Shown here: positions 8,841 to 63,372 of the stretch, piece after piece | Numbering within the stretch: the stretch's first letter is position 1 | Layout of the letters: every line of letters starts with the position of its first letter | DNA from: Massalongia carnosa | Taxonomy: Eukaryota | NCBI GenBank assembly: GCA_965645245.1 | Contig: OZ287079.1 | Span: 1,178,001-1,242,000 of the forward strand | Reading direction: 5' to 3' | Length of the DNA: 64,000 bases | The notes under the pieces: model-generated | What the model saw: the letters and a program-made list of their open reading frames with translations, nothing else | What the model was told of the DNA's origin: nothing | Database searches by the model: none | Program-made: the position numbers and the translations under genes

Positions 8841-9579
8841 ATGTCAACCGTCGCACTGAACCCGGTTGAAAGGGCTGGAATATTCAAAAACACTTTGTTT
8901 TAGTTACAACGCAGCTAGGTCTGAGAACCATAATCTTTGACAACTGAAGAGCTTGATAGTAAGCTCCCACTAACTAGTGGATTCGAAAAGTCCTCAAGAA
9001 GCTATGCACCATCTTATGCAACCAATTCCCAAAAATCTCATAATTGAAGCTGTTGAACTGCGTCCATTGAATGGCTGCAGATTCAAAAACTTGAAACGAG
9101 TGTATTGAGATGCGCAGGGAGCATCAGTCTTGGAAAACAAAAAACAAAGAAATACTCTCGACTTCAATCTACCTTGTAAATGAGACGCAAAAGCATACGC
9201 AGCTTTAGATATGCTGATAAGATATAATTAATGCGTTCGGCAAAGGATAATTCCCGACAGCACTCCAAAAATTCTATAGTATATTCGGAGAGACCTCTTT
9301 GGATTCCAAGACGAGACTGACGAGAATGGACACTATGTGTCTGATGTGCGGCCAGAGTTTTAAACCAGCTGTAAATATGCTTACAAGAACGGCTTATTCT
9401 TTACAACCCGATTGAAAAATGAATCAAAAGTTCAAGGAAAGCGCTATTGAAACTTAATCGGAGAAAATCCTGGACCCTTTATAGAAATGCCTTCTAAACA
9501 TAATATCGTCGTAATTGAAGATCGAAAGAGAGGTTTGTCATTGAAAGGGCAACACTTCAAGAAATCTAGATATGTACCT

Positions 9580-12500
9580 CAGTGTTCGCAATGGAGTGAT
9601 TCTTAATGGATATCCACTCCATTTAATCCACTCCAATCCACTCCAAAGGTTTTTTTTTTAAATGGAGTCCATCCAATAAGGTTTTAGGCTTAATGGAGTC
9701 ACTCCAATAAGGATTTATCTAATGGAGTGGACTCCATGGAGTCCAATGGATTAGGGCCTAAAAATAGGTGGTGTTTTAGGTATAGCTCCAGGGGCCTTAA
9801 AGCTATGGTCATTCCCACATTTTAAGTGATATTTCACTTGTTTTACTGCTTTTATTCGTGTCAACCTACAAATATCACTTGCTATGGACTGAATTTGCTT
9901 CTATTTAAACTAGAAACCACCAAAATCCGTCCCGAACCGTACTTGCAGTGATGTCTGATATTAGTGACGATACAACTACAACCCGCCCCGACCCTGGCGA
10001 GACAGAGTCAGTATTTGAGCTTCCTGGAGCATGTGATATCGACGTTACTGAACGTATTACGCGTGGCAGAAAGCGTACGGTTGGTTCAGCAGAGCTTGGG
10101 AATGAAGCTTCAAGAGTATTGATCCATATCCTTTATTTAATCAAGCTTATATATTAATATATGGCAGAGGTCTCCATCCCAGTCAGCCCTGAGCTTTTCT
10201 CGACGTTCCCCTGCACCCTCCACGACTTCCCAAGCTACGGAGCGTCCCCATATCATCCTGAGCGGCACTATATACTCTGAGAACGACAGGAACGCTCCTG
10301 GTAACCATTCCAGCAGCCCTTCTAGGCCGTCACCTATAACCTCTATTGAAGGCAGGGTTATTGGTGGCCGGTTTTCGTCTCCTACAAGTGGAATAGCTTC
10401 AAAGAGAGCTAGAGCGAGCCGTAGTTGGATATGGGATTGGGGCACCAAGGCAGAGAGGGAGGGCAAGGCCTATTGGGTGTGTAACAAATGTAAAGTACCA
10501 GATTTATACTTATTTGCCATGTTTGCTATGAAAATTTGTATAGAACTCAGTGTAATTCCGCCCATTTTATATGTACCGAACCATCGAGTTGTCATTTTGA
10601 CATGTACTATACATTTGTCCAATATCTATTTAATTTATATTAACGATTATTAAAGCTAATTAACTACAGGTGTTGCAGACGGTTCTAATACTGAGTATAT
10701 GATCACAAACGGCACTGCTTCATGTGGAGAGCACTTACGAAAGGACCATAATCTTGTTCCACCTAAGGAAGCAGCTGCTAGGGCATCTATCTCTGTTGTT
10801 GAACATCTTCAACAAGGGGTAGTAGTTGCTCCTTTTAGTCCAGAAGTCTTTCGACAAAAGCTCTTACGATTTCTTTGTATTTGTCATATTCCTTTTGCCA
10901 TTGTAGAGCAGCGTGCTTTTCGAGACCTGCTTTTATATTCAAGTCCGTATTTACGAGGCAATGATACACTCCCCAAGTCGGGCAATTCCATTAAAGCTGC
11001 ACTATTAGAGATATTTCTAGCTTGTCAACTTGTATTGATTCAGTTATTAGTGGAAAGCAACTGCCAAGTCCATATATCCTTTGACTTATGGTCGTCTCCT
11101 AATAATTTCTCTATGCTAGGTCTTTGCTGTCACTTTATTGATCGTTCCTGGCAAGCACGTACAGTGATTCTTGGCATGAAGCGTCTTATTGGACCCCATA
11201 GTGGAGAGAATATGTCAAAATTAATAGTCAAGGCCCTTGAAGTTTATAAACTAGGGGGTAGGCTCGGCTACTGTGTTTTGGATAATGCCGGTGATAATGA
11301 CACTTGCTTGAGAGCAGTCGAGGAACATCTCCTTTTGCAGGGAGTTAGGTGGGACGCTGATACTCACCGACTACGTTGTTTCGGCCATATCGTTAATCTC
11401 GTGGCAACTGCATTCTTAGAGAACAAACCTACGAAGCAAGCGCGTCAACGACTCCCAGGGGAGCCCAAGGCAGTCTGGAAACGTCCAATAGATGCTATTA
11501 CGAAGCTTCATGTGATTATTGTCTTTATAATGGCCACCGCTCAAAGGATCGAGCAGTTTGAAGGGATTAATAAGACGATTCAAGACCCTCTCTTGCATCC
11601 AATTAAAGAGCAAATCACTAGATGGTTTTCAACTCTTAATATGCTTCGACGGGCCATTCAAATCAAAGACTCTCTTGATCTATTCGTCCATCGTAACTCT
11701 GAGCAATCATTTACTGAGAAGACTCTTTTTGATTCGCAAATGACGGTTGACGATTGGAACTACGCCAAGGAAGTGATTGCTTTTATGGAACCACTCGAAG
11801 AGCTTATGATGAGTTTACAAGGAAGAGAGATGTCTGGTATATTATATAAGCTTTAAATAACTCGATAATCACTAAGCTTTTAATAGGAAATAATGGTTAC
11901 GCTCACCAAGTGCTCCCTTCATATGATTTAATAAAAAAGGGGATGGAAGAGCAGCTATTTGGTTTTGAGCTTGATGAAGTCGATCAGTCAAACCCACAGG
12001 AACTAGCTAGTAAACGACTGGAACTGAACATTATTAACGCCATGCAAAAGCTAGAGAAATACCGTCAACTACTCACTTCCCCTATTTATTTAGTGGCCGT
12101 CGTCCTGATGCCCTGGTATAAGTGGACTTATTTTGAGGATAGTATGAGTGCTAGTGACCTTGCTCAAGCTCGTACGAAGGTCCAAAAACTTTGGCAAGAC
12201 TTATATGCAAATATAGAGGTTGCTGAAGATGATATACCGTCACCTGGAAGTTAAAATAATAAGGTATATTAACACTTATTAATATAAAAACACGGCTAAC
12301 TATATTTGTAGCACGCTAAGCCCTCCCTTTTGAAGGAACACCTTAAAAGGAGTACAAACAAAGCTAAATCCACTGTCAGAGATGAATATAGACGGTACTG
12401 TAATACAGAACCAGTTGATGAAGATGGTTGCGGGTTCTCTGGCCACTTAGAATGGTGGAAAGCTCACGAGCCTCACTATCCTAGACTAGCTCAAATGGCC

Positions 12501-13388
12501 AGGGATATATTCTCTGTGCCTGGCATGAGTGCAGTGGTCGAACGCTTGTTCTCTTCGTCCAAATTGATGATTCCAGATCATAGGAATCGTCTAAAACCCG
12601 ACTTTATTGAGGCAGGAGAGTGTATTAGAAGCTGGGCCATGGGTGGGCTAGTTCTAGGAGACTATTTCGAGTACTTACCAGCGTACCAGAAGGCAGGAGA
12701 GAAGTTCGGGGATCAAGGGAACCCATAGGAGGTGGGATGAGTGCATGGTTGCCAAGGGGACTAGAAGTTGATATTTGCTATGTTTGATGGCAAATTTGGC
12801 ATTGCTGGAAAGGTTCTTTTAGGTATCTTTTGAATTTTTCCTAGTTAATTTTAGTTGAAAGGTTCAAAAACTACATTGAGTTCGTGGAGAACAAATGCAA
12901 AAACACTCCTTCCTCATCACTTCAACATCGCAACCTCAATCTACCACCTATATTTCAGACTCTACCCCCTAGCCGAGGTTTACCGGGCCATGGAAGGTGC
13001 GAAAATCCAGCCAAAATCATCAAAACACAAAGGTCGTCGTCCTCGCTTAGCTGGGTCGTCGTCTCGATTAGGCAATTTATATCTACTACAAAGTGGTTTT
13101 ACGCTCGAGGGAGGTTCCGGAAAGGTTTGTACGCACTGCACTTCAGTGGAGTCCATGGAGTCCATGGATTAAATGGATTAAATGGATTTAATCCAGTGGA
13201 GTCCACTGGATTTACTCCACTGGAGATCCATGGACTCCGATCCACTCCATCCATTAAATATATTCCTTAATGGAGTCCAATCCATTAAGGTTTAATCTTA
13301 ATGGACTCCAATCCATATAGGTCTAGACTTAATGGATTGGATTGGAGCGCCACTCCAATCCAATCCAGTCACTCCATTGCGAACACTG
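9580..13388 (+). mobile_element. hAT-superfamily DNA transposon, copy 1 (3809 bp)
   Basis: Perfect 20-bp TIRs CAGTGTTCGCAATGGAGTGA at 9580-9599 and 13369-13388. TGGA/TCCA-rich subterminal repeats at both ends, an internal hAT transposase, and a second copy at 58980-62726. Confidence 0.97.
9951..12728 (+). CDS. hAT transposase (BED zinc finger, DDE core, C-terminal dimerisation domain), 5 predicted exons, apparent premature TAA at 12252-12254
   Basis: Predicted introns 10116-10167, 10490-10669, 11838-11886 and 12264-12311. Motifs: WIWDW..YWVCNKC..GEHLRKDH (BED), ISFDLWSS, VLDNAGDN, RCFGH (CxxH), RWFST, and LEWWK..YPRLAQMARDIFSVPGMSAVVERLFSSS. Confidence 0.88.
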
Positions 13389-14421
13389 GATTCGGCCAAG
13401 GCCCGGCGAAAACCAACGGATTGGGGTCGTTTAGGAGGATTCATTGGTCACTTGCTTATTTCGGTCCTTCATGCGCGTTTTGAACTATCCAAAAGAAGGA
13501 AAAAGAGAGATGTAGGTAGAACCTTGTCGTGGTATCGCCGGACGTCGTATTTAGTATATACCCTCAGAATTAGCTGAAACTACTGGTAAAAAAAAACACG
13601 TCGCAGAAGAGAATGATGACAATCAGATAAAGGCAGCTTGAAAAAGTCAAGGATGAACGGAAACTGTCTTCAATAGATGACTTTTGCCAGAATCGGGTTT
13701 CATGTAACATAGCTCTCAGATGAACTCAAGCTCGTTTTCCGGCTTTCCAAAACGCCCGTATTGTTAGCGGCTTCTATCCCGCATTGGATTTTCATGCCCT
13801 CATCCTCTACTCTTGATTCTGCTCCTCATACCCCTTCTTTTGCTTTCCATCGTTTCTTTCCTCAGTTGAAATTCTAGGCGCCTTGCGCGTTATACATATG
13901 TCATGATTTGACTCAAACAGCTCGGACAGCTCAGCGAGCCCCGGGCAAGCTAGGGGCGCACCGTACTTGCTCCGAGCGCAATTTGAGCCCCGAGCTAGCC
14001 CTCAGCTATCCCTCAGCGCAATTGTTCACCTGCTGGGCCGGTTCCCGATTTGCCGATGCGACGCCTCATTTATATCTTTATTCATTACAGTTGAGATTTG
14101 CATTTTACAATCGTTGGATTGAGATTTAGATTTTTCAAATTTCCAAACGATTCATAAGGCTTATGATCGATCGTAATGCTTGTCAGAATAGGTATCTCAG
14201 ATCTTCTCTTAGCGATATAACAAATAAACTTAAAATTGTTGTTGTATGTTCTTTTCATTAATGACTTAAACAGCTGTTGAGCATTACTCGGTGGAAAAAG
14301 ACGAAATGTATCAAAAGCCTAAAGTCCAACTAGTGAGGAGCCGTCTTGTGATATAGATACCACATCCGAAGATGGATAAAAGTACTCCCCATCGCATGGC
14401 AGCGGCTTGATTCAGCTTGAT

Positions 14422-15271
14422 TCAGCTTCTCTTCGCAGTTGCAGACTCATTCCTAGAAGTAGAATTAGCCTTGGATCTGTCAGCGGGGCATCGCAATACA
14501 TACAATCGCGGGAACGGTTCGTTGGGAACATCGAGGCCTAAAAACGTGCAAATCGGGTCCCATCCCTCTTTGACATTGAAGACGAGAAGTCTCTCGCTGG
14601 AGATCCGTCGCATAACCTCCACATTATGCCGCCGGTGAACGAGAGGCCCTTCACCGTCGTATCGTTCTCTCCAACCTGACACGAAACTTGGTGTCATCCA
14701 CACGGAATCCGCCAAGCTCCAAATTGGCCAAATCAGCGCCCGCAAAAATAACCCTCGCCAGTTGTTGCAGTAGTAAACTCCCAACGTGTCGACCCACGAC
14801 CGCCACCATTGCTCGTCGGAATCACGAGCTGACAGCAGCACAACACTGTCTGGATAAAGGTCGCTCAATTCCGCGTAGAAGTCCATGGTAGGTGAGTCAA
14901 GGGTGGCGTTGTACGGAGTCGTGAGCTCAGCCAGTGAGACTCTCCACTTATTCGATGCAGTTCATCCGCGTTTGCATCGGGCTTTAGCGAGCAGCAATCT
15001 CGCATACTTGGATTGTTCACCGTCTAATATCAACCTTGTCATTAGCTGACAATTATCATGAAAGAAAGAGATTTGCGCCCTCAACCATCGTGATGGCTGA
15101 GGATTCCGAAAAAGGATGAATGGATGTATCATTTGACGCTCACTTCTCACGGCTATGAAGGACTAGTCCACGTCCGAGAATCTCTAGCGCAGCTGCAATC
15201 AAAGTTGTTCCAGTTCGAGGAAGACCCGCCCCAATGATGCGCGTCATCTTGCGGTGGCCCATGGAGGCCAT
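14422..15271 (-). pseudogene. Fungal sulfotransferase-like P-loop protein (Sulfotransfer_4 type), disrupted
   Basis: N-terminal IIGAGLPRTGT motif, then DSPTMDFYAEL..LYPD..V.LS.RD...WW.S and RLLVFNVKEGWDPICTFLGLDVPNEPFPR. In-frame TGA at 14964-14962. A further TGA at 14424-14422 precedes a hydrophobic tail that stays open to 14311. Confidence 0.75.
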
Positions 15272-16027
15272 TGTGAATAGTTGACGTTCTTTGGATTGAA
15301 GGGGAACGTGAAAGGGGGGGACTAGTTGAACCTTTGGAAGAGTATCCATTTTCCATTCTTGCCGCAATCACTCTATAACGGTCCATCTTCCTACATGATG
15401 GAGAGTGGAGCAGCAAATAGTCCATTCGGATGCACAAAGATGCAAATAAAGTGTGCCACGTGTGCTTAATTAGAAAAGGGGGTTGTGGATGAGACATCAT
15501 TCGTTAGAACCTGCATTGCATCTGGTGACACGTACTCTGTATTTTGCCTTTAACCCGGAATCGATGGGACGCCCAGAGATCAAATGCATCATGACGTGAC
15601 GACGGCAGTGATCATGGGAGATTATTGTACCTCCACTTAGTCGTTCTAGGATCAGTGGATCAGTTTTCCAGGATTACACCCTATTGATCACGAATATGGA
15701 TTAATCAAATGCGCTAACATTCTTAATCAAGTCAAATCAAAACATGTCGAGTAGGTCCGGGTTCTGACTTAACACATCGAACACGAAAGAATTATAATAT
15801 CAAGTATTTACACAACATATCCTATTCACATCATGACATACAATTCTTTCTATTCATTTTGGCTACTCAACTCAAAAAAAATTCCAAAGCGAATCGTTGT
15901 TGACTTCAGTAGGAAAGTTGATTGTGCCTTGAAAATTAATTGCGTTTTCTGGCGGGTCACTCTCTTCTGCGTCAGCTGGTCGATAACTGTCATACGATTC
16001 CCCTGTTCCACGGGCACTTCGATGTAG

Positions 16028-19000
16028 TTAGTTATTTGTTTGATTATCGAGACTTGGGCCGAACCTCTCAACATTGTATCCATCTAGTTCATAGACTTGA
16101 TTGTCCTGCAATTCAGCGAGAGGAGACTGATAATCAGCAGATGATATATTGTTGTTCTGTGACATTACGTGTGAGAGACGTCTTCTTGGAGGGTTGACAG
16201 CAAGCTCAACGCGGTTTTCGGATTCGACAATAGAGTTAGAGCCTAGCTTGAAAAGTCTAGCAAACCTTCCCAATGCAGCAGGTGAAGAATCCCCCAAACA
16301 ATAATTGGAGTCTGAATAGCGAGTTATGGTGCTGAGACGCTGGAAATTTTGAGTCAAGTCAGGCGGTACCCAATTCTTACGGCGAATTTGCTGGCTAGGC
16401 GTTCTGCTAGCCCATCGGCGAGAATTCTTGTTAAGATTTTGGCGGGTTTCTAATATAGAAAACAAAACAATCAGCGAAAGATCCAGCGAAACAGAACACG
16501 GTATCGAACTTCTCTTATAATCTTCATCCTGCAGTAGTGATCTCGGGAATCTGCTGATTGTATATGTCTCGGCATTACTCAGACAAAGTGAAATCTCGGT
16601 CTCAGCGAGTTTGCTCGATAACTGCAAAGTGATTTTGCTCATACTGAACTGTCCTTGTCGAATCATCCGTTCAATCACGTCCGAGCTGATTGCCGCTGAT
16701 TCCGCAGAATTCTCTCGATGCACTTCTTGTATCATGAAGTAGGGATTGCATCCATCTTGCGCATTAAGTTTAAAGAATTTTCCTAGTTCGATAATCTCGG
16801 AACTATCCGGTAGCAGCCGGGAATAGATGTTACCTGTGGCTCATTATCAGCACAAGGGTCTTAGAATGCACAACGGCGAGACAAGCCTTTGCACTGAAAG
16901 GAATCGTCCTCTGTTAGTTCTGCCGGGGCAGACTTTTCAAAATAAAAGCTGGATGCAATCAGCTGTAGAGCTACTTTTCGAATCCGGTCATCGTCGCTGA
17001 ACTTATCTCGTGTGAGGCCCTGAAGATGTTTCATTCGATGGACCTCGTCCAATCCTGGGGGATCTTCGACGAGTCGTGGGTTCAGCCGCACGTATCTTGG
17101 CCTATAGATCAAAGGCGGCTGTAGAACATTCATATAGGTTTCCCAAGTCTTTTCTGAGTCCAAGCTCGACGCTATATGGTCTTTTGCAATCTTGTATAAA
17201 GATTTCCCGTGTGAAAACACTCCCAGACGTAGCGGCGAAGTTTTTTCAACAGCTGGGCGAGAGCTCGGGTTGAAGGCAGTCCCGATCGACACTACAATAT
17301 CTGGGTATTCATCTTCCATGTTTGGCCAGATAAGTTTTCTTTCCTTGTCGGCAATCTGTATCGGGTTGTTGTGGTAGATTGCACCATCTGCATATATTTG
17401 TTTCGAAGCATAATGACAAAGTGGTTTGAAAATCATCGGTGCTGCTGAAGTGGCTCTCGCACTGCTGGATTGTGAGATGCTGATTAACAGAGAAAGTGCT
17501 CTTACTTACGCTTCCCAAAGCTTCATCTCCGATTTCAGCTTCTCGGGCCTTTGAAAATGATAAGGGACTTCATAACGTCAGTGATAGAACAAGGAGTTAC
17601 CCTAGAAAAAGTAAGGCCACAAACGTTTTTCGTTGCAGAGCCGGTTATAATTGGCCAGAACGACCGGACTTCCTGCAGCCGAAGTTGTCGTTACCGCAAG
17701 CTTAACTTCGGATCCATACGACTGATGTGGCCGAGAACCTCCGAAAAGATACTCTTCTTCTGAAAAGGCGCTAATCAATGCCTCCTGAAGCGGCTGAGTC
17801 TCATATTTTGAGTGATTATAGCTAAAAGAAGAATCTCAGCGATTACTGTGTAACGGAGATGTGAGAGAATATGGCGAGAGAGGCTGTTACTTATCAATGA
17901 ACCATCCAACGCCAGGAATATTGCCACCAGTGCGACGTGTGAACGCCTTTTGGCACAAATCTTCGAAATGTCGAGTGCATTGCTCAACTGACCACGATTT
18001 TGCCGCAAGACCAAGCGCGATGATACCTCCAGTGCTAAGCCGGTCTAGTTGGTATCATCCATAGTATAGGTTTTGTAACAAGGCTAAAATACCTGGTTCC
18101 TACGATCAAATCAAAGAAACACTGTATAGGCATCCTTCCGCCCATCGCGCGTTCAATGAGTCTCAAAATTTCTAACTCGACTATGCCTCGAATTCCACCT
18201 CTATATTTGTTTTTAGTGAGGACTGAAAAGTCTTGGGTATTTAAAGGTCTTGCCTACCCATCAAGCGTTAAGATGCGTATGCCAGCCGCGGCTGGTTTAA
18301 TTAAGACCCTCCACATTTGATGTCGTGGCCTGATTAGTGTTTCCATCGGACAGCCAGTCATCTCTACCACCGTCTTGCCTCGAGACTTTCCATACGCCAT
18401 GAGACATGGTGTACAGAGAACATGGCCGCATGGCAATGCGTGCTCTGGGGGCTCGAATAGGCAAGAGAAGCAAGTAGAATGACTTATGAAATTACTTGGC
18501 CGGCCTCGTGCAGTGTGGTCAAAAAAATGATCAAGTACAGTGTCTTTGTGAATCTGGGCGGCCGCCTGAACTTCAGATCCGTCCTCATCCTCGGTTCTTG
18601 AGCGAAGAATTGTTAGTAGTTCACACAGTCGCGCGTATATTTCTTTTTGAAATTTCTCTTGGTAATTTGGAAACGAGAAAAGTGAGATATATCCTCCCAC
18701 GGCCAAGACTTTTCCATTTTTAAGCTGATGTCCTTTAGATCCATGGCCACCTAAGGGAGCTATGTTATATGAAAATCTTTGAATAGGCATGAAAATGAGG
18801 GACTCACTACGAACATTGACGCATCTAGCGCCACCCCCAGGTTTTATATACTCGCAAGGCCAATGTCGATCACAGAAGTTTTCTAATGCGGCATCTATAT
18901 GTTCCAGGTACTGTGGGAATATTTGATCGGCAGTTCCTAGGAAAAGTAAATAAGACTACTATTCATGTCCATACCAATCACTCCCCTTTACCTCTGATTT

Positions 19001-21111
19001 TATGCCTCGCAGAGTCTAGCATAATACATGAAGCAACCATGTAACTCAGTTCTGTGAAGAGGATTTGACCGTCGGCTTCGTTCTCCCAAACTTCCATTAG
19101 GTTGATCGCTAGCTTAAGGATATTTCCGCCAAAATCTAGTGGGATTGGGCTGTTTGTAAAAGACGCCTGGACAAAATCAAATGGAGTGTCGAGATTGCAG
19201 GCAAAATGGTCAAAAGCAAACTGTAGATAAGGCTGTAACTCCTCAGCATCAAGCAGCATACGGAGGGCACCTTTACGCCGCCGTGCTTTCGCACAAGCTA
19301 GCTGGATGTTAACGTAGAGTTTTTGTATTTGATCGTTTATTAAATTTGGCCGACCATTCGTGGGAACATGCACGACTTTGAGGGAGCTGTAATAAGACAG
19401 AAGAAGCTGTTCGACGGTCTCAATATGACGATTGCGTTCGCGCCAAAAGTGTGCATACTTCTTAAAAGTAGCGTTCTGAAAGACCGTCTTTGACAAAGAT
19501 TCTAATAGTACAGAAGTGGCTGATGAGACTTCCCATAATGTGGGATCTATGTCATTTTCCGAGGCATTGAGAATGATGATTGCGTGTGGGAGTACCGGCT
19601 GATTCGATGATTTCTCGAGAGCGGCTGCAGCCCAGTTTATGAGTTTTTCGAAGACGCTCTCGATGACTCTAGTTAGAGATTTTGTTGTCATCAAAAACTG
19701 GTTTTCTAGCCTCTAGTGAGGTTTTCTTACCTAGGGTTCCTAAGCACAAAAACAACAACATCTGAAAATGTATAAAGGAGGCGGGGGTATAGATGCGTTA
19801 CCGCAAATTCTCGACTTCTTTTAACACTTGTGTCTGCCCAAGTGATTTCTCGCTCTGAAGTATGGTTAATTCTTCGTATATTCCGTTCAAAGGGACCCAT
19901 TCGCCCAAGCTTGGAGCCTTTGTCCTTGGTTTTCCGCCATGCACCGAGTGGCTCTCGTTCACCCCCTTCAAGCCCTTCGCAATCGGCATAAAGTATCGGT
20001 TTGTCGGAGTCCACAGTTTGGGGGTCTACATACAGATGAACATCTCCCGAAGTAGGTACATCCTTGCCCACCGAGCCTACGACCGGAGTAGCATAGGCTT
20101 CTTCATCTCGATGGCAGAGATCAATCACCAACTTGATGATTGTGCTCTTTCCGGCACCTATGATGCTGAGTTAGGTATTTTTTCCCTCTTCATTCAGAGA
20201 AGAGTTACCTGTTTGTCCCACAAACGACACTAGGCTCGGATACCGATTATCATGGCCCACTTTAGCCATTGAAGTGTTTGCAGCTCTTCCAGAACGTAAA
20301 GTGCTAGTCATCAGATCTCCATACCTTCCATAATCGCGAAAGAGAGGTAGCTCGCCATCCTCCCGGATAATCCCAAACCAAGTGGTGTTTTGATCATTTC
20401 GATGTAGAATATCCTGTTCCGCATCGGTCGTGCTTGGCCTTAAAATGGTTTGTACTGTCTTTGCAATGTTATGGTCGGTTTTCTCATGAGGTACAGCGCC
20501 AAGTACAAGACTCTTCTTCTTGTGTGGCAGCTGTAACTGCCAGCATTTATCACAGAAGACGTTGCCGCACACATTACAATAAGATCGACTAAGACCAAAA
20601 GTTTCACATTGCTCACAAAGCTGATGGCCGGCCTCAGTTGAAACAGAGGAGCGATTCTTTGAAGAGGTATGAGAGATGGATCTGAACCGAGGTAAGCCCG
20701 ACTGTCTTGCCCCCAACGATTATTCTGAAGTGTCACCTGTCTTTGAGGGAGACATGATCCGTCCCATTCCACTCTGCGTGAAGTCTTCGGGCCATTTGCT
20801 CGTCGGACTCCTCTTCGGCTCCGCCAGGAATCCCATCATCCAGATCAATTAGACTGTATTGTGAATGCAGGCTGGAATACTTATCAGTCAATTCAATTTT
20901 GCAAATTTTGTACTTTAAACTTATAAACCCACTGTCTACGGGGATCACCGCTTGGCTCACCGTCATCGCCGTGTATGTACCGTCGCGGGGATTTTGTAAT
21001 ATCAATTGGCCGTAAATTTGGAGATATATCCAGCTGAATAAGATTCTCTTCAGACTCCCAATGAGGTAAATCTTGATAGGAACTTGGAGCTTTTGAAGCC
21101 ATGCTTGGCAT
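16028..21111 (-). CDS. Large multi-exon protein: MIU-like motif, Cys/His zinc finger, P-loop GTPase-like domain, RING finger and patatin-like phospholipase
   Basis: Exons can be joined in frame. Motifs: DEQMARRLHAEW; CEQC..CNVC..FCDKCW..H; GQTGAGKS (Walker A across an intron); ILYADCEG; CFSCLFEPPEHALPCGHVLCTPC (RING); LTLDGGGIRG, FDLIVGTSTGG (Ser nucleophile), ARATSAAP and DGAIYHNNP (patatin). Confidence 0.88.
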
Positions 21112-22557: not shown

Positions 22558-22682
22558 TGTTTAAAATAGGAGGGATGGATGGAGAATGATGGACCCAATG
22601 CACAGAAAATAGGTGGCAGAGTGCCAGAAGTCTCTGGATAGTACAGAACTTCTATGGATGAAATAATTCAGATTATTGCGAC
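22558..22682 (+). repeat. Dispersed ~120-bp repeat, copy A (copy B at 58269-58384)
   Basis: Near-identical direct copy starting tgtttaaaataggagggatggatggagaatgatggaccc and ending gattattgcgac. Confidence 0.9.
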
Positions 22683-25267: not shown

Positions 25268-25943
<676 letters not shown>

Positions 25944-26201: not shown

Positions 26202-26969
26202 ATGTTGCTTGACGAGGACCCAGCTACGGTAAGTATAGCGTACTTCCATCCAAGGCAATAGTCTGACCTTGTGCGATAGCTCATTCACCACACTATTGGG
26301 AATTTCAATACTGCTCCTGACAAAATCGCTATCGGTCGCATCAACGAGTCACTTTCTACCCTTCAACAGGCTCGCGATTTGCGCATTGGAGAAGCAGAGA
26401 GTGCATTAAAGAGTACATATAATCTATCCCGACAACATAATTAGACACTTACGATAATTTAAGAGCTCTCTCGGAGCCTAGCTACCCTGTCAACCCAGCA
26501 TAACGAGACTCTATCCTCGCACAACAGCATTGATCATGCGTCGCAGATTGTCGAGCTTGACACACAGAAATTCCGCATAGCCAAAGTAGCCTCAGATCTC
26601 GAGATTGAAGGAGAGAGATTGGAGCAAGAACTCGAGGGTCTAAAGGATCGCTTGCAAGAGCTTGACATGCAAGGAGTCGAAGGAGACGAGGCCATGAAGG
26701 CGAAGAGAGAGACTGATGATCCTACAGTGTGAGTATGCTCCATCAGGGAGTTTTCCACAAGATCAAGGCAATGAAAATATATAACGAGTTTATCTAGACT
26801 CAAACTCAAAATATATCGATCCCTAGGTATCGATGTTGAGGTGGACAACGCAGGCAACTATAATAAAGCAATCATCAGAAATGCTCAGAAGGGCGATGTT
26901 CATGTTATCAACATCGATCCGAAATTCTCAAGGTTTTTCTACGCGCAATACTTTTGGCAGACCATGTAA
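26202..26969 (+). CDS. SPC24: Kinetochore Ndc80-complex subunit Spc24 (multi-exon; absent from the ORF track)
   Basis: Spliced product [37 protein letters not shown]...[25 protein letters not shown]...[14 protein letters not shown]...[32 protein letters not shown]; 3 GT-AG introns. Confidence 0.9.
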
Positions 26970-27616
26970 AATAAACGTGTTGACAAATTGGCGCTGGCGT
27001 ATTTAGGGGGGGGAGTTTCAGAAGCGGTGTGATTGGAACGATTCTTAGCTTCTTATAAGCTTGCCGCGTTGTAACCACAGCACGAACCAGTGGACCTAAG
27101 GATGGAGTTTATCGATCGGTTTTCCCATCGTATATTGATATTGGGAACGGCTCGGGACAAAACCAACAGAAAAATCGGATTTTAAGTTATTTTTCAGAAC
27201 ACATTGAGAGGTAATACCAGCCACTAGGTATAGAGCACAAATAGTCGAGAAAACTAGTCACTAAAGAAGATAGATTGATGCGGAGATGGAGATATGGAGG
27301 CAAGGAAGCTGGAGTTTCAAAGGTACATGTGTGAAAAGTAGAAATATCTATCAACAAAATATTGGAAAATTGCTTAATAAAGATTACTTTTAGAAAAGTT
27401 ACACAGCTTCATCGAAAGGTGGGTTTAAAAGTAATTCACATGAAAAGTCTACAAAAGCGAGCGAGTTCTACAAAGTGGAAAAAGGTTATTGCGAAGGTAA
27501 TCTTAAAGCACTTTTAATTGGAGTGGCGGTCCAGTGGCGTGAGTGGAAAATCAGGGAGCAGGTTGCCGGATGTAGTCCAGTGAAGATTCCCATGTTTCTT
27601 CTTCTCTAAACACAGT

Positions 27617-30532: not shown

Positions 30533-30591
30533 GGAGTACCCCGTATCTAATGCTTATTTGGGTACAGAGTACAGAGTACGTACTTCACTCG

Positions 30592-52765: not shown

Positions 52766-54287
52766 TTTGCAAGCAATAGTAGGTAAGTTGGCTTGAGCGA
52801 CGTTCTTTCAAATGCTTCGGTGATTTAGACTGTACACAAAATAGGTTTCCTTGAACTAAAGAAGCAATGAAATATAGTCAGAAAGGAGAAGCAGAAATCC
52901 AGCGGGAAAGGCAATAGTGTCCTGCAGTACCTTTGGGTCCTGCAGAAGTTTTTCACCGCCATGGTGATAGAAACTCGCTGTAAGACGGATATATGCAAAC
53001 CTCTAGAAAGGTTGACCAGTACTCCATCGAGTAATGGTTTGCGGCTCTCTTCACCTGTAGGCGCAGGCTGACTCGAGAATTCAGAAGGAAAGGGCGCAGC
53101 GGGGGTTTTAACCGCGTTTGCCTTGAATATTCCAAGTATTCTGGCAGATGGTTGGCTCTGCAATATACCTTATGAAAGTAGAACGTCGTTGTACTCTGTA
53201 GTCCTTCGTGAACCTGCACTAACGTAATTCGTGTTGGGGAAACCTTTGGATAGCCTATTTTCACAGCTAACCATGTGGAAGAAGAAATCCTATTGCGCTA
53301 TGCGATGGTCAGAGATTATTGGTGACAGTCAGCAGATCAGGTGACTGATCTTAACTAGCTAACTACGGTAGTTAAGCCATCTTGAAGTCGATGACTTCAA
53401 TATCCGCTGTCCTCGAATGAGTGTTCCTGCATCGCTAGAGTCCAAAAGAATTCTAAGGAGCATCCCATCGCCACGGTGCAATGCACATCTATTTCGCAGA
53501 TTGGCGTTTCAGAAGTCCACAGTACTCGCTTCCTTACGACCATCAACTTCACTTCTCGTTAGCCATTAGTTAGTGGCGATTTACGGGTGGGGATATGGGG
53601 ATATCTGCCCCTTAATCAATCAACCACATTTCTCACACCCTATCTTTTATCCGTTTATTCGCTCACTCTCTAACCAGCTTCAACCCATCAACCACCATCT
53701 CCTTCCTCCCTATCTTACCGTTTAGTAATTCCTCAACCTTCTGCACCGACTCTGTCCCCTCCCATTTTCGTTCCTTAACCTCTCCCAGCAAACACCTCCA
53801 GCCTAGTTAGATACCAGTCCCTCTCTCACCCGAGAAAGGGGTTTCTCGAGCTATCAAATCGTATTGAGTTTTCTTCTCCTTTTTTTTTCCTTTTCCTTCG
53901 GCCATTTTCCTCCGGATCTTGTTATACATACACAGAAGAGATGCGCTTCAGGAGAGGAGAGGGGGAAGTCCGGATAACGTATGCAAGCTAGGTAGGGTAA
54001 TTAATGAAGTTGGAAGGGAGAAAGAAGAAGAAGATGGTGAGGAATAGTATATGAGGAGATGAAAAGATGAAAATGGGGAAAAAGAAAGGAAAAACATGAC
54101 AAAAAGGTGTGGGGGGTAAGCCCCTTTTCTCAACCTCTCAATCCCGCCAATCCCTATTTCCGTCTTCGATATTTAAATAAAGAATAATTAAAATTAAAAT
54201 CCTACGGTTTATTGTTTTAAGCAATTCTCTGAAAATCAATATTTCTCCTCAACCGGTCATCTCAACGCTCTTTTTTAATTAAATAAA

Positions 54288-56881
54288 GGGTTCGGATACG
54301 GGGACACCGGGTAGGATGCATGTACACCGGGCACTTGATGCATGTACACCGGGCACTTGATACATATACACCCTCTTCCCAAAAAGGTAAAGGGCCGGCA
54401 CATTTCGCACCACTTTACCTTTCTTGGTTAGTAGATGAAAAATCAGATGGTGATTTGAAAACTATGCGGCAATGAAGTTTTTAGCATTGATCTGTTGCAT
54501 CTCATCAAGATTGATAAGATGATATCTTCTAGCTACTCGGTCGTAATTGCCTCGTCAGTCCTACCCCTTCTTCCCCTGCCCCCCCTGCCCCCCCTGCCCG
54601 CCTCGCCGACCTTTTTCGCCTTGTCCGCCCTGTCCGCCCTGCCCGCCCTGCGCGCCCTGCCCGCCCTGCCCGCCCTAGTTGCTGCTTGAGTCGCAGGCCT
54701 GGATGAGGCACGAGTGCCTGCCACCTCACCTTCATCTCGTCGTCGCTCGCGCCCGCGCCCGCGCCCGCGTCCCGCTGGTGTAGCCTCGGCTCTTGCCAGA
54801 ACTCGTTCGATATCCGCTGGCAGTTCATTCCCATGTTGCTCTGCTATTTCACCTTCAACGATTTCGAATTGAGATGGATTCCGATAGGTGGAGTTGTCCA
54901 ATGCTTGTCTACGATTCTCCGCCCCTGCAGGACGTCCTCGAGGTTGGACAACTGCTGGTTCTTCCACCTGAAGTAGCGGATCGAGAGTTGGATCATTGAT
55001 TGGATCAGGTAAGGAAGATCTTTCAAACCTCCAATGAGGATGGACATCTTCCAAAATCAGACATCCCTCAGGTCCGAATGAACGTTCCTGCATTTTGTGA
55101 CTGCATGGTAATCCGGTAGTAGTTGTAAAGCTTCCAGTGCAACGATTGACTGCCGTTGCTTGGTCCGTCAACAGTCTGTATTGATCATCCATTCTTCTCA
55201 ATGCGTATGGGGTTACGAACGCCGCGATGCGATTGAAAACTGGTTTTCGAAGATCCATAGGGTATCGCATCTTCGCTTCGTCAAAGGCTATCATGTAATT
55301 TTGTCGCTCGTTGATTAGAAGTAGGTTGATGCCATCTACAACTGTTTTCAAATCTCCTACAGCTCAGTCAGTATTGAATGTTTCTTAGGGTTGTACTCAT
55401 TACCTGTTGATACTCCGAGATGACGTTTAAGAGCTGCGTGCCCCCCCTCACCTCTAGAAGTAGTTGTGGTTCCGAAATGTAACACCTGATCGGTTTGAAA
55501 TTTCACGAAGCGACGATGAAAGGACATGATGTACGTTTCTCGCAGATAATCCAAACATTCTCCATGCGTTAGATAGTAGGTGTCATTCATTCCCTGCCAC
55601 GCCGACTCGTAATCAACTCTGGAAGCGGCGTATACAACAGAAGTCCAGGCGGATATGAAGTCATCCCATTCTTCTTTGGTATTGAAGTCCTTCTTGCAAT
55701 TTGCCGTCACATTCTTGTTGATATGCCAAAGACAGAGCAGATGATTCGTATTGGGAAAGATCAATCGCACGGCATTCATCAACCCACGCTCCATATCGGT
55801 CACAACAACCACCGGATCTGGAATTTGCAACTGCGCATACAACGACTTCAATTGTCCCAATGTCCACTCATAATCCACCTGCTTCTCCTTTGCCATGAAG
55901 CAAAACGCGACATAGAAATTAGTATGTAGGGCCGTTTGCCCGCTGATGATCAGCAACGGAAGTTTATATCTGTTGGTTTTGTAGGTGCAATCCATGACCA
56001 GAACTTCATGATTGACCTTCAGTAGAGTTTGGGATGTTCCTCTCACGAAGAATAAGTGGGTGATCTGATTGCGAATGTCTTTCTGATAGTTGTACGTCCA
56101 GTCGTTTTGATCAAGTTCCTGCATCAATGCCTGAACCGGGGTTAAAGGACCTAGAGTATCTCGTCTCAGCTGTGCCTTGATGTTGTAGATATCTCGAGGC
56201 TTGAATAACGGATTGTTGTTATCGGTGTCAATACGAAGGGTGGAGAGAATCTTAGAAGGAGCTGTTTGCACGGTCAATTGTCTAGAGATGTCGTTCTTAA
56301 TCTCTTCAGTCATAGCCATTTTGCGTAACGTTGGATGCGATCCAGCAATTGTAGCTTCATGATTATGGAATGGGTTGATTACTTCCAATAACCAGGTTCC
56401 ATCCACTCTGTTTCGCACCGCCGTGACCTTGAACTGACAATCGATGATTCGAGTATTAGTATGACGTCTATCTCTGCCTCGAGGTATTCGATTGCTACCT
56501 CCCCTGTCGCAGCGCAACCAGACTTTTCTCTTGATGCCAAGATCTGATTTCTTTGATCTAGCTGTGACCACCGCGTATCCTTCTGAGCCGGCGTGAGTAT
56601 TGACGCTGAGAATGAGTTCTTCCAAGGTGGAAAAAACCTGGTCATCGTGAGGAGGAGCCAGAGGCATAATTTGAGAATGATTGAGAAAGATGATGCATCA
56701 ATTGAAAATTTCAAGATCTCATCTGATTTTTCATCTGCTAACCAAGAAAGGTAAAGTGGTGCGAAATGTGCCGGCCCTTTACCTTTTTGGGAAGAGGGTG
56801 TATATGTATCAAGTGCCCGGTGTACATGCATCAAGTGCCCGGTGTACATGCATCCTACCCGGTGTCCCCGTATCCGAACCC
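54288..56881 (-). mobile_element. Mutator-like element (MULE), 2594 bp, apparently intact
   Basis: 162-bp TIRs (54288-54449 and 56720-56881) with one mismatch, GGGTTCGG termini, flanked by the direct repeat TAAATAAA (54280-54287 and 56882-56889). Confidence 0.96.
54533..56667 (-). CDS. MULE transposase (FAR1/WRKY-like zinc finger, MULE DDE domain, SWIM-like finger, RG-rich tail), 695 aa
   Basis: The 47-bp intron 55403-55357 joins the two ORFs in frame. LRCDRG..DCQF..HNH; VMDCTYKTNRY.LPL; VVTDMERGLMNA; HLLCLWH; TTSRGEG.H; CTGSF..TTGLPCSH; PRGRP. Confidence 0.93.
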
Positions 56882-58268
56882 TAAATAAATAGCTATCATC
56901 TCCGCGACTGACACTTACCTCCAATTCTCGCTCTATGGTCAGGTTGGAAAGAGAGTATGTCGTGTAGCAAAATAAAGAGGAACCGGTAGGTGCGGGTTCA
57001 TTCACTGCGTGTTAATTAGTTCCTTTAAAGGAGGGAGGAGGTTTAAAAATGGGGAAACCGGGGGGGCGGGGAGGGGGGTTTGATCGTTGATGGTTCAGGG
57101 TTAAGGGTTTGGCTGAAAGTAGGTTTTTTGAAGAGAGAGAAGGGGGGGGGGGGGGTTGGTAATCTACTTATGATTTGGTAGGTATGTACATTCATAGGCC
57201 CTGACAAGGAGAGGGGGCTTTTGGGGAACTGACGCATGTTGAATTAACCCAGCGGCAAACAGGGCAGATAATAACAAGGTTCCCAATTTTTTTATTAAAA
57301 TGGATAAGCCACTACTACTTCATCAGCAAAAACTCATCCATCCAGCAGAAGGAGAAGACCCCAGTTGGCTGTCTTCGCTTCATAGGCTCGAAAAGCCACA
57401 CAAAAATCCCAGTTTTGTATCTCCTTTTTTATCATCACATCGTCCTTCTTTCGGTGGCACGTCTCGTCTCTGGCGATACGCGGCTTTTTATATACTCCAC
57501 GCATGAGTATGATTGACTGATTGTTTCTAGTGAAGGGGAGAAACGATATAGGTAGGTTATTGTGTAGACGATATCTTCTCTGAGATGAAACGTAACTGAA
57601 CGCTTTTGGGAATTTCGTCGACGTTTAGGATAGATATTTTTTTAAAAAAAAAGTACATGTGAGAAGAAGAAAAATGATCGGGGTTTGAAGGCACTTGTTG
57701 TAAGGGGAATTTATGTACTATGATGGATGAAGAACTAAAATCCAGAGGTCTCGGAGTAAGACCTTCGTTTCGCTCCTCCTAAACGACCTGTGTTGAAACG
57801 GGAAGGAATTCCCATAACACTCGTATGTCCTTCATTGATTGATTGATGAGAGGGAATGATTCTTTTTTTACGAGATCTTAGGGGATTGTCCTTTTGATCG
57901 ACAGGCGATTTTTGTCGCATTTTTAGAATCTCTAAACTATTTCCAAGAGGAGATAGTCTGATTTATGGGTACAGTATTCTTGATATTTTCTTTGTTTTAT
58001 CAATCGAGTCCTTTGAGTCATTAGAATCAGTCATTGAATCCTCCTCCTCTTTAGGACTATTGGCTTCTTTTTCGTAGTCATTAGAATCTTTGCGGTGTTG
58101 CCTAAGTGGATCAATACGAAGAAAACTCAAGTTCTCGGTATCATCCTAACATCAACATGAATTTTATGTTTATTCATATATTCAGCGTATTCATAAGGCC
58201 TTCTCGGCCAGCTTCTAATGCTTCTGTAATTAAACATTAGCTGATACATCGACCACGATTAAAATACT

Positions 58269-58384
58269 TGTTTAAAATAGGAGGGATGGATGGAGAATGA
58301 TGGACCCAATGCACAGAAAATAGGTGGCAGAATGCCAGAAGTCTCTAGATAGTATATGAATGAAATAATTCAGATTATTGCGAC
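58269..58384 (+). repeat. Dispersed ~120-bp repeat, copy B (copy A at 22558-22682)
   Basis: Matches copy A apart from three G>A changes and a 9-bp deletion. Confidence 0.9.
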
Positions 58385-58433
58385 GGGTAGCGGTGTTGAC
58401 TACAGTAAACACATTGATATGAGCATCCAGTTA

Positions 58434-58581
58434 CGCCGCGCAACGGGTTGGGTTTTCGCCACAAAATTGCTTTTTCGCCACCGGGTTTTTCTTTCAAAAC
58501 CCAACCCGGACACCAAAAGTCATAGGGTTCGCCACAAACGGGTTGGATTTTCATCAGAGAAATCCGACCCGTTGCGCGGCG
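58434..58581. mobile_element. MITE (about 148 bp), Tc1/mariner-pogo-like, TA-flanked
   Basis: TA-CGCCGCGCAACGGGT...ACCCGTTGCGCGGCG-TA, with internal repeats of cgggtt and ttcgccac. Confidence 0.75.
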
Positions 58582-58979
58582 TAAGCATCTACTTCATCTC
58601 CATGACAGCATTTTTCTGTTTCGTTTCTTGAGGAATTGAAACAAAGTAGCGGGAGATTTGAGAAATGAATTAAGATGCAAAACTCGGAATTAGAGCTGAA
58701 GATTTAGAGTAAACCCGCAGTTGATCTCGAAGAAATGGTGCTGATGTTGTGGGTGATGGGAACGGAAATAGAAAACGGAGGCGAATAGAAAGAGTATCGT
58801 CCAACAGATGCTCGTTCTTGGCTCGGCGAAGGGCAAATTCGCTTTCTAAGTTCTTGTTGTCTTCGGTTTTCTCGTATTTGGTCTTTGGGGTTGTTTTCTG
58901 GTCCTTTAATGAATCTCGTGGTATTTATATACTGTACGTCTTCGTTGATCGCTTATAACCGTTGAGTTGCAAGGTACAT

Positions 58980-61900
58980 CAGTGTTCGCAATGGAGTGAC
59001 TGGATTGGATTGGAGTCCATTAAGATTAAACCTTAATGGATTGGACTCCATTAAGGAATATATTTAATGGATGGAGTGGATCGGAGTCCATGGATCTCCA
59101 GTGGAGTAAATCCATTTAATCCATTTAATCCATGGACTCCATGGACTCCATGGACTCCACTGAAGTGCAGTGCGTACAAACCTTTCCGGAACCTCCCTCG
59201 AGCGTAAAACCACTTTGTAGTAGATATAAATTGCCTAATCGAGACGACGACCCAGCTAAGCGAGGACGACGACCTTTGTGTTTTGATGATTTTGGCTGGA
59301 TTTTCGCACCTTCCATGGCCCGGTAAACCTCGGCTAGGGGGTAGAGTCTGAAATATAGGTGGTAGATTGAGGTTGCGATGTTGAAGTGATGAGGAAGGAG
59401 TGTTTTTGCATTTGTTCTCCACGAACTCAAAGTAGTTTTTGAACCTTTCAACTAAAATTAACTAGGAAAAATTCAAAAGATACCTAAAAGAACCTTTCCA
59501 GCAATGCCAAATTTGCCATCAAACATAGCAAATATCAACTTCTAGTCCCCTTGGCAACCATGCACTCATCCCACCTCCTATGGGTTCCCTTGATCCCCGA
59601 ACTTCTCTCCTGCCTTCTGGTACGCTGGTAAGTACTCGAAATAGTCTCCTAGAACTAGCCCACCCATGGCCCAGCTTCTAATACACTCTCCTGCCTCAAT
59701 AAAGTCGGGTTTTAGACGATTCCTATGATCTGGAATCATCAATTTGGACGAAGAGAACAAGCGTTCGACCACTGCACTCATGCCAGGCACAGAGAATATA
59801 TCCCTGGCCATTTGAGCTAGTCTAGGATAGTGAGGCTCGTGAGCTTTCCACCATTCTAAGTGGCCAGAGAACCCGCAACCATCTTCATCAACTGGTTCTG
59901 TATTACAGTACCGTCTATATTCATCTCTGACAGTGGATTTAGCTTTGTTTGTACTCCTTTTAAGGTGTTCCTTCAAAAGGGAGGGCTTAGCGTGCTACAA
60001 ATATAGTTAGCCGTGTTTTTATATTAATAAGTGTTAATATACCTTATTATTTTAACTTCCAGGTGACGGTATATCATCTTCAGCAACCTCTATATTTGCA
60101 TATAAGTCTTGCCAAAGTTTTTGGACCTTCGTACGAGCTTGAGCAAGGTCACTAGCACTCATACTATCCTCAAAATAAGTCCACTTATACCAGGGCATCA
60201 GGACGACGGCCACTAAATAAATAGGGGAAGTGAGTAGTTGACGGTATTTCTCTAGCTTTTGCATGGCGTTAATAATGTTCAGTTCCAGTCGTTTACTAGC
60301 TAGTTCCTGTGGGTTTGACTGATCGACTTCATCAAGCTCAAAACCAAATAGCTGCTCTTCCATCCCCTTTTTTATTAAATCATATGAAGGGAGCACTTGG
60401 TGAGCGTAACCATTATTTCCTATTAAAAGCTTAGTGATTATCGAGTTATTTAAAGCTTATATAATATACCAGACATCTCTCTTCCTTGTAAACTCATCAT
60501 AAGCTCTTCGAGTGGTTCCATAAAAGCAATCACTTCCTTGGCGTAGTTCCAATCGTCAACCGTCATTTGCGAATCAAAAAGAGTCTTCTCAGTAAATGAT
60601 TGCTCAGAGTTACGATGGACGAATAGATCAAGAGAGTCTTTGATTTGAATGGCCCGTCGAAGCATATTAAGAGTTGAAAACCATCTAGTGATTTGCTCTT
60701 TAATTGGATGCAAGAGAGGGTCTTGAATCGTCTTATTAATCCCTTCAAACTGCTCGATCCTTTGAGCGGTGGCCATTATAAAGACAATAATCACATGAAG
60801 CTTCGTAATAGCATCTATTGGACGTTTCCAGACTGCCTTGGGCTCCCCTGGGAGTCGTTGACGCGCTTGCTTCGTAGGTTTGTTCTCTAAGAATGCAGTT
60901 GCCACGAGATTAACGATATGGCCGAAACAACGTAGTCGGTGAGTATCAGCGTCCCACCTAACTCCCTGCAAAAGGAGATGTTCCTCGACTGCTCTCAAGC
61001 AAGTGTCATTATCACCGGCATTATCCAAAACACAGTAGCCGAGCCTACCCCCTAGTTTATAAACTTCAAGGGCCTTGACTATTAATTTTGACATATTCTC
61101 TCCACTATGGGGTCCAATAAGACGCTTCATGCCAAGAATCACTGTACGTGCTTGCCAGGAACGATCAATAAAGTGACAGCAAAGACCTAGCATAGAGAAA
61201 TTATTAGGAGACGACCATAAGTCAAAGGATATATGGACTTGGCAGTTGCTTTCCACTAATAACTGAATCAATACAAGTTGACAAGCTAGAAATATCTCTA
61301 ATAGTGCAGCTTTAATGGAATTGCCCGACTTGGGGAGTGTATCATTGCCTCGTAAATACGGACTTGAATATAAAAGCAGGTCTCGAAAAGCACGCTGCTC
61401 TACAATGGCAAAAGGAATATGACAAATACAAAGAAATCGTAAGAGCTTTTGTCGAAAGACTTCTGGACTAAAAGGAGCAACTACTACCCCTTGTTGAAGA
61501 TGTTCAACAACAGAGATAGATGCCCTAGCAGCTGCTTCCTTAGGTGGAACAAGATTATGGTCCTTTCGTAAGTGCTCTCCACATGAAGCAGTGCCGTTTG
61601 TGATCATATACTCAGTATTAGAACCGTCTGCAACACCTGTAGTTAATTAGCTTTAATAATCGTTAATATAAATTAAATAGATATTGGACAAATGTATAGT
61701 ACATGTCAAAATGACAACTCGATGGTTCGGTACATATAAAATGGGCGGAATTACACTGAGTTCTATACAAATTTTCATAGCAAACATGGCAAATAAGTAT
61801 AAATCTGGTACTTTACATTTGTTACACACCCAATAGGCCTTGCCCTCCCTCTCTGCCTTGGTGCCCCAATCCCATATCCAACTACGGCTCGCTCTAGCTC

Positions 61901-62726
61901 TCTTTGAAGCTATTCCACTTGTAGGAGACGAAAACCGGCCACCAATAACCCTGCCTTCAATAGAGGTTATAGGTGACGGCCTAGAAGGGCTGCTGGAATG
62001 GTTACCAGGAGCGTTCCTGTCGTTCTCAGAGTATATAGTGCCGCTCAGGATGATATGGGGACGCTCCGTAGCTTGGGAAGTCGTGGAGGGTGCAGGGGAA
62101 CGTCGAGAAAAGCTCAGGGCTGACTGGGATGGAGACCTCTGCCATATATTAATATATAAGCTTGATTAAATAAAGGATATGGATCAATACTCTTGAAGCT
62201 TCATTCCCAAGCTCTGCTGAACCAACCGTACGCTTTCTGCCACGCGTAATACGTTCAGTAACGTCGATATCACATGCTCCAGGAAGCTCAAATACTGACT
62301 CTGTCTCGCCAGGGTCGGGGCGGGTTGTAGTTGTATCGTCACTAATATCAGACATCACTGCAAGTACGGTTCGGGACGGATTTTGGTGGTTTCTAGTTTA
62401 AATAGAAGCAAATTCAGTCCATAGCAAGTGATATTTGTAGGTTGACACGAATAAAAGCAGTAAAACAAGTGAAATATCACTTAAAATGTGGGAATGACCA
62501 TAGCTTTAAGGCCCCTGGAGCTATACCTAAAACACCACCTATTTTTAGGCCCTAATCCATTGGACTCCATGGAGTCCACTCCATTAGATAAATCCTTATT
62601 GGAGTGACTCCATTAAGCCTAAAACCTTATTGGATGGACTCCATTTAAAAAAAAAACCTTTGGAGTGGATTGGAGTGGATTAAATGGAGTGGATATCCAT
62701 TAAGAATCACTCCATTGCGAACACTG
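58980..62726 (-). mobile_element. hAT-superfamily DNA transposon, copy 2 (3747 bp), inverted relative to copy 1
   Basis: Same 20-bp TIRs at 58980-58999 and 62707-62726. The transposase ORF translations are identical to those of copy 1. Confidence 0.97.
59578..62355 (-). CDS. hAT transposase, copy 2 (same apparent premature TAA at 60054-60052)
   Basis: ORFs 62149-62358, 60450-61607, 60052-60396 and 59578-59976 translate identically to those in copy 1. Confidence 0.88.
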
Positions 62727-63372
62727 GCCGAATCCTTACTGAACTCGACATCATTCTATCGAATCTGGAAATCCGATTTAAGAGTAACTAGTAGGCATGC
62801 CTTTCAGGGTGAAATGTCCTTGCTCAGAGATGAATCTTGCCGTGGCTTCAAGCATCTTTCTAACTTGAACGCTTCCTTTATATTTGTGCATATCTCCTGT
62901 ACGAGTACATGGATGTCTGTTTTGATTTAAGGGCTTGCAGTTGCTTCGGGACAAATTCCATTACTCGATCAATCCACACAGAATATAGAGAAAATCAAAA
63001 TAAACAGCCTCTGATCAATCTACTCGCTCCTCACGGAGGAAACAACTCGACACTGTTATCAGAATGTTATACTTGAGAATTCTTTTGAACCTAGTTACCG
63101 TCATCTATCTATTTCGATTAAGTGTTGTGCTTGGTCACTACGATGGAACTATCTGTTGCAATCTTGCGCTGAAAGACTGTTTCCGCTATTTTTTATTTAA
63201 TTCCTTTCTCTTCTTCAACTTACAGACAGATAGAACGTCGAGTTTCGGAATCACAAACCCTAGGCTTGTTTCTATAGAGCCAATCACTTGTCTTTTTTCT
63301 TTCTTTCTTTTCTCTTGCTATATATATATACATACATATAGGAACAGACAGGGGGATTGGGACTTGATATAA

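Follow-up and report, generated by a model that had tools for sequence, protein, structure and literature searches.

Mobile elements lying in opposite orientation can act as portable homology for chromosome rearrangement, as in the inversions mediated by insertion sequences (IS) in bacteria and the hobo-associated inversions of Drosophila melanogaster, and they leave hybrid duplications behind; hobo is itself a hAT element. Exchanged target-site duplications are the accepted signature of transposon-mediated inversions, as set out by Delprat et al. 2009 (PMC2775673). In the account given there, ectopic recombination between inverted insertions yields exchanged duplications and chimeric copies, the insertion of a hybrid element formed from sister chromatids yields the same picture but identical copies, and aberrant transposition that starts from separate sites brings deletions or duplications with it. 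Here, we analyse a stretch of 64,000 nucleotides from a Massalongia carnosa assembly (contig OZ287079.1, positions 1,178,001 to 1,242,000; hereafter the window, in whose coordinates all positions are given). In this stretch, two inverted copies of a hAT transposon with exchanged duplications bound a block of 45.6 kb, which was probably flipped by ectopic recombination between two independent insertions. A keyword search of open-access text revealed no report of a hAT-flanked inversion in a lichen-associated fungus.

The two inverted copies and the four octamers that flank them had been located in a preliminary description of this DNA, and every coordinate given there was confirmed from the sequence. 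From left to right, the locus is made of the following parts:

9572-9579, + strand: octamer ATGTACCT, the outer (5'-side) flank of copy 1 and one half of a target-site duplication labelled "X"; its partner, the reverse complement, is at 58972-58979.
9580-13388, + strand (transposase): hAT copy 1, 3809 bp, with perfect 20-bp terminal inverted repeats (TIRs) at 9580-9599 and 13369-13388.
13389-13396, + strand: octamer GATTCGGC, the inner (3'-side) flank of copy 1 and one half of a target-site duplication labelled "T"; its partner, the reverse complement, is at 62727-62734.
13397-58971, no strand: the segment presumed to be inverted, 45,575 bp of unique sequence without the two inner octamers.
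58972-58979, + strand: octamer AGGTACAT, the reverse complement of ATGTACCT and the inner (3'-side) flank of copy 2.
58980-62726, - strand: hAT copy 2, 3747 bp, inverted relative to copy 1, with perfect 20-bp TIRs at 58980-58999 and 62707-62726.
62727-62734, + strand: octamer GCCGAATC, the reverse complement of GATTCGGC and the outer (5'-side) flank of copy 2.

The ends of the elements are sharply defined. Copy 1 starts with CAGTGTTCGCAATGGAGTGA at 9580, directly after ATGTACCT, and ends with TCACTCCATTGCGAACACTG at 13388, where GATTCGGC follows; copy 2 starts with CAGTG at 58980, right after AGGTACAT, and ends with CACTG at 62726, where GCCGAATC follows. The 20-nt TIR CAGTGTTCGCAATGGAGTGA has four matches in the window, all without mismatch and solely at the four element ends, and this number of matches was reached in none of 100 shuffles. 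The copies lie in opposite orientation, with inverted arms of 3613 nt. Their flanking octamers form two perfect reverse-complement pairs (8/8), in both cases across the copies and not within either of them: the two flanks of each single copy are alike at only two of eight positions by our own count. The segment between the elements, including both inner octamers, spans 13389-58979 (45,591 bp), and undoing the flip in silico results in 8/8 direct duplications around both copies, which bears out the exchange of inverted 8-bp duplications first proposed for this locus. With the element ends fixed, the chance of two independent crossed 8-mer reverse-complement matches is 4^-16, i.e., ~2e-10 (own arithmetic). 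Because this probability is so low, the crossed octamer pattern is real and chance is excluded as its source.

The block also contains an internal control for an undisturbed insertion at this locus, a Mutator-like element (MULE) flanked at 54280-54287 and at 56882-56889 by one and the same octamer, TAAATAAA:

54288-56881, - strand: Mutator-like element with a MULE transposase domain (E 8.5e-26) and 174-nt TIRs (97%).

Its open reading frames (ORFs) carry MULE, FAR1, and SWIM-RNaseH-like domains, and the element looks like a recent, possibly autonomous insertion within the inverted block.

The two hAT copies are identical over their first 3295 bp. Five substitutions and two insertions or deletions (indels), of 15 bp and 47 bp, set them apart, and every one of these lies in the final 520 bp on the 3' side, the end that faces inwards in both copies. 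In the coordinates of copy 1, the differences are confined to one stretch:

12875-13351, + strand: the sole stretch of difference between the copies, with a substitution at 12875, a run of 9-nt units at 13169-13206, and a 47-bp unit at 13305-13351.

The run is a rearranged series of 9-nt TGGAGTCCA / TGGATTAAA subterminal units with a net 15 bp between the copies, and the 47-bp subterminal unit is extra in copy 1. All 5 substitutions (12875-13351 versus 58980-59450) are transversions. Since no transition of the C-to-T type occurs among the differences, the copies show no sign of repeat-induced point mutation, even though they are linked and near-identical. Judging from the two sequences, the copies appear to carry two allelic forms of the 3' subterminal region.

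The assignment of the element to the hAT superfamily relies on its ends and on its transposase, whose gene in copy 1 has the following layout:

10699-12728, + strand: hAT transposase gene of copy 1, with exon 1 at 10699-11836, intron 1 at 11837-11886, and the dimerisation domain in 12330-12728.

The C-terminal hAT dimerisation domain PF05699 was matched in 12330-12728 (E 1.8e-20, 73 bits against a cut-off of 21.4) and again in the mirror ORF of copy 2; the two copies have identical coding regions. The alignment of a relative of 685 amino acids (aa), P0006, to copy 1, with inspection of the change of frame, revealed a first intron of 50 nt with canonical GT..AG borders at 11837-11886. A second intron probably lies near 12219-12311, and the spliced model with both introns has an open frame of 628 aa. 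A protein search with the 398-aa central ORF resulted in 41 homologues at E<=1e-5 among 1787 candidates. Among these is the 385-aa product encoded in the window itself, which falls into a cluster with 30 members from 5 contigs (up to 2.26 Mb long); relatives from outside have identities of at most 78%. The architecture PF27041+PF27039+PF05699 was found in five relatives, four of them shown aligned: P0037, P0038, and P0039 (three of 631-685 aa), P0006 (685 aa), and P0034 (510 aa). The hAT-like_RNase-H family PF14372 matched the transposase at E 0.007, below its cut-off; besides this sub-threshold match, no BED or other Pfam domain was found at E<=5, and a sequence search of the PDB with the transposase gave no match. 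By three of the four defining features, all read from the DNA and its translation (8-bp duplications, short TIRs of about 10-25 bp, and the C-terminal dimerisation domain), the element is a hAT, in line with its original identification; the fourth feature is an RNase-H-like DDE catalytic core with an N-terminal BED zinc finger. Going by the spliced model, it looks autonomous, with an apparently intact transposase.

Further information came from public sequencing runs. Five runs hold the region, and we compared four of them over window positions 1-20000 using k-mer contigs (X3, from the same sample as X2, was left out), taking the summed contig depth as a hint of multi-copy status and not as a copy number. 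In X1, which is labelled a lichen metagenome, the flanks occur at a depth of ~25 with 99% likeness to the window (8 of 769 letters differ), and the summed depth is 0 over the interior of the hAT element (10006-13340). A contig of 1182 nt from this run corresponds to 8811-9579 in its first 769 nt, and its next 413 nt fit nowhere in window 1-20000; its left end, at 8811, lies 30 nt inside a high-copy repeat that ends near 8840. In this relative, diverged by ~1%, the left flank leaves the present order exactly after ATGTACCT and enters neither the element nor the left end of the block. A joint from ~9579 to ~13397, i.e., an empty site in the present order, was seen in none of the four runs; this agrees with the inversion model, which such a joint would contradict. 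The ancestral partner of the left flank would be the present right end of the block. The first repeat met leftwards from 58971 is a miniature inverted-repeat transposable element (MITE)-like sequence at 58431-58584, 387 nt away; with k-1 = 30 added, this distance becomes 417, near the 413 nt of the X1 contig, which is a weak, post hoc agreement.

A comparison of empty sites with relatives had been proposed in the preliminary description. At the ATGTACCT end, X1 is without the element at exactly that point; two scans of metagenomes gave no orthologous locus. When metagenome contigs were searched for the exact 30 nt to the left of the junction, there were 0 matches. A protein scan of metagenomes used the exon of the sulfotransferase gene, which lies 1 kb from the inner junction, and gave two loci, both only 36% identical; these are paralogues in unrelated organisms and are useless for synteny.

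The other three runs give a different image of the element. In X2, X4, and X5, the element exceeds the flank many times over in summed depth (in X2, ~15-20 thousand versus ~455), which hints at a multi-copy family. The absence of depth in X1 together with this excess in X2, X4, and X5 suggests that the family burst, or was acquired, very recently in this lineage. Contigs of X4 join 9835 to 12673, 10124 to 10701, 10702 to 11980, and 10704 to 11140; these are presumably internally deleted, non-autonomous hAT derivatives, as expected from abortive gap repair after excision. Two further features of the runs concern the surroundings of the element. Over 13460-20000, X2 and X4 show several small indels at about half the summed depth, and a total depth of up to twice that of the left flank; there is a second, slightly diverged version of this stretch in both runs (a paralogue, a second genotype, or a haplotype). 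In the left flank, ~5129-5217 and ~8553-8840 have depths tens to hundreds of times that of the flank in all four runs, including the hAT-free X1, with many loose ends and an opposite-strand joint 8553/8597. These stretches are probably very abundant small repeats or MITEs.

Two mechanisms fit these observations, and they are the two named as candidates when the locus was first described: ectopic recombination and alternative transposition. We consider it probable that the 45.6-kb block was flipped by ectopic recombination between two independent, inverted hAT insertions. Two copies of an active, multi-copy hAT would have inserted independently, in opposite orientation and ~45.6 kb apart, and the insertions would have created an 8-bp target-site duplication apiece, one of them ATGTACCT and the second GCCGAATC. 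Being near-identical and oppositely oriented, the copies offer 3.3 kb of perfect homology in which to recombine. A homologous (ectopic) exchange somewhere in the ~3.3-3.6 kb of identical shared sequence would then have flipped everything between the crossover points, so that both original sites would be represented by an octamer at each copy, in reverse-complemented form on the inner side. Two separate insertions followed by recombination are favoured because the copies are non-identical and differ in the manner of two allelic forms. We infer that the copies are indeed two separate insertions and that the orientation in the assembly is the physical one.

Several points weigh against ectopic recombination between two insertions. 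The pre-inversion junctions, rebuilt by script, make no repeat or known feature continuous, and they restore just short, random-looking ORFs of 64 and 84 aa; among the control junctions in the present orientation, C1 has 71-aa ORFs across it and C2 has none. A protein search with a 93-aa ORF of the window that reads into the right junction gave no candidate. The match of the 413 nt of X1 to 58559-58971 is a prediction of the model and not an observation. Chimerism of the copies is what proved recombination in Galileo, and the comparison here covers the two copies in the window. The two copies differ solely in a 3' stretch rich in repeats, and slippage, or gene conversion from further copies, could have produced these differences after a one-step event. 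Finally, the junctions are the same in both orientations of the block, so short contigs cannot discriminate between them, and the assembly is the sole source for its orientation. The last two points each lead to a competing explanation.

The first is a one-step origin by hybrid-element insertion, in which transposition from sister chromatids produces the inversion and the second copy in a single event. A single copy would have resided at ATGTACCT; after replication, the 5' end of one sister chromatid and the other chromatid's 3' end would have inserted together at GCCGAATC, 45.6 kb off, so that ATGTACCT would be the old duplication and GCCGAATC the new one. Such an insertion is described as yielding the same exchanged duplications, "strikingly similar" to those of ectopic recombination (Delprat et al. 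2009, PMC2775673), and our own derivation agrees. The identity of the first 3295 bp of the copies is what it would allow, and the hAT looks both autonomous and recently active, given its intact transposase model, its high summed depth in three of the four runs, and its deleted forms in X4. Against this, hybrid-element insertion predicts identical copies, and we observed a substitution, rearranged 9-nt units, and a 47-bp unit within ~480 bp; with the other 3.3 kb unchanged, two source variants fit better than decay after a one-step event. The reversed-ends variant known from maize is described as making one matching 8-bp pair (PMC8225341), which does not fit the two pairs present here. We regard hybrid-element insertion as unlikely, and it keeps that much standing because later slippage or gene conversion could have made the differences. 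There is the same slight prospect that a single aberrant transposition made the inversion and the second copy in a family that entered or burst very recently, with a segment that may still segregate in both orientations among populations of the lichen fungus. If true, this would be a natural fungal hAT reshaping chromosome order by the action of its transposase and not by passive homology.

The second explanation, to which we give a comparably small chance, is an assembly artefact: each copy would truly have its own matching duplication, and the 45.6-kb block would have been mis-oriented between the 3.8-kb inverted repeats. Both orientations have all four flank/element junctions in common, and a decision between them needs reads longer than ~3.7 kb plus anchors. 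The X1 data fit a mis-orientation as well as a real inversion, and they support the inferred ancestral order only; the samples may also be mixed, as indicated by the variants at about half depth in X2 and X4. On the other side, the arguments are indirect: the window is without N and crosses several high-copy repeats, the longest contig of the transposase cluster (2.26 Mb) has the size usual for assemblies from long reads, in which 3.8 kb is routinely bridged, and the assembler kept the differing 3' ends of the two copies distinct.

A chance likeness of the flanks, or a pair of unrelated insertions whose duplications have degenerated without any rearrangement, has as its sole support that hAT duplications can decay, and it is wholly implausible given two perfect 8/8 matches in exactly crossed arrangement (~2e-10), flanks alike at just 2/8 positions within copies, and a left flank that in X1 does not run on into the left end of the block.

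The block that ectopic recombination would have flipped carries housekeeping genes. The five core genes attributed to it in the preliminary description (FIS1, SPC24, LSB6, MED21, and EXO70) were all recovered with Pfam:

25271-25597, - strand: Fis1.
26463-26966, + strand: Spc24.
27584-30039, + strand: PI3/PI4-kinase domain protein (type II PI4-kinase, LSB6-like).
35765-36430, + strand: Med21.
37981-39672, - strand: Exo70.

It also holds a sulfotransferase, a patatin-like gene, an SNF2 helicase, a GMC oxidoreductase, a DUF6536 gene, the MULE transposon, and the MITE. The left flank (1-9579) had no Pfam match among the 16 ORFs of at least 90 aa that were scanned, and the breakpoints do not obviously cut a gene. 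Several repeats lie in the block. The MITE-like element at 58431-58584 is 154 bp long, has 25-nt TIRs TTACGCCGCGCAACGGGTTGGGTTT (92%), and is single-copy in the window. A degenerate minisatellite of 11-12-nt units (GGGAGGCTATTT-like) occupies 45670-46240 and is flanked by 68-nt direct repeats (44976-45043 and 46494-46561; 94% alike, 1518 bp apart). Another direct repeat, at 22558-22682 and 58269-58393, is 90% alike over 125 nt and 98% over its first 86 nt, with its two parts 35.7 kb apart.

The mechanism itself is textbook, and the event is a well-known kind of rearrangement. If the orientation is physical, the locus offers a base-pair-resolved flip, by a DNA transposon, of 45.6 kb with housekeeping genes (FIS1, SPC24, a PI4-kinase, MED21, EXO70, and others), in a fungus whose nearest matches among the runs carry lichen labels. 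The block may still be flippable, as the preliminary description suggests, and an inversion this large would suppress recombination locally when crossed to the other orientation. The hAT family is probably young, still mobile, and a source of structural variation. The value of the locus for population work is that it points to a probable structural polymorphism and to a transposon family that is active; it also calls for caution when judging assemblies around 3.8-kb inverted repeats.

Among the systems described elsewhere, the Dici transposon of the yeast Diutina catenulata resembles the proposed process, with tens of near-identical DNA-transposon copies and an intrachromosomal inversion by recombination between inverted copies, as reported for that species (PMC13469147). 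The study concerns another transposon family (search domain PF13358) in a yeast host and compares several strain assemblies, whereas one assembly is analysed here. The outcome is closest to the Galileo inversions 2j, 2q7, and 2z3 of Drosophila buzzatii as they are described by Delprat et al. (PMC2775673). In both cases, inverted copies of one cut-and-paste transposon lie at the two breakpoints, the duplications have been swapped between the copies in reverse-complemented form, and the breakpoints show neither loss nor gain of sequence. Galileo is a member of the P superfamily, with 7-bp duplications and long TIRs, whereas the element studied here is a hAT, with 8-bp duplications and 20-bp TIRs, in a fungus. 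For Galileo, uninverted chromosomes with single targets and chimeric copies were both shown, whereas here the former find indirect support through X1. Of the four criteria applied to Galileo, two are thus seen at this locus: inverted homologous copies at the breakpoints and exchanged duplications. The superfamily itself is shared with maize Ac/Ds, where alternative transposition is described as producing inversions of tens of kb with junctions at element ends and 8-bp duplications (Sharma et al. 2021, PMC8225341), as at this locus. Reversed-ends transposition of Ac/Ds, in that description, starts from two neighbouring ends in direct orientation and leaves one new 8-bp pair, whereas the present locus has two complete exchanged pairs and non-identical copies, which favours recombination over reversed-ends transposition.

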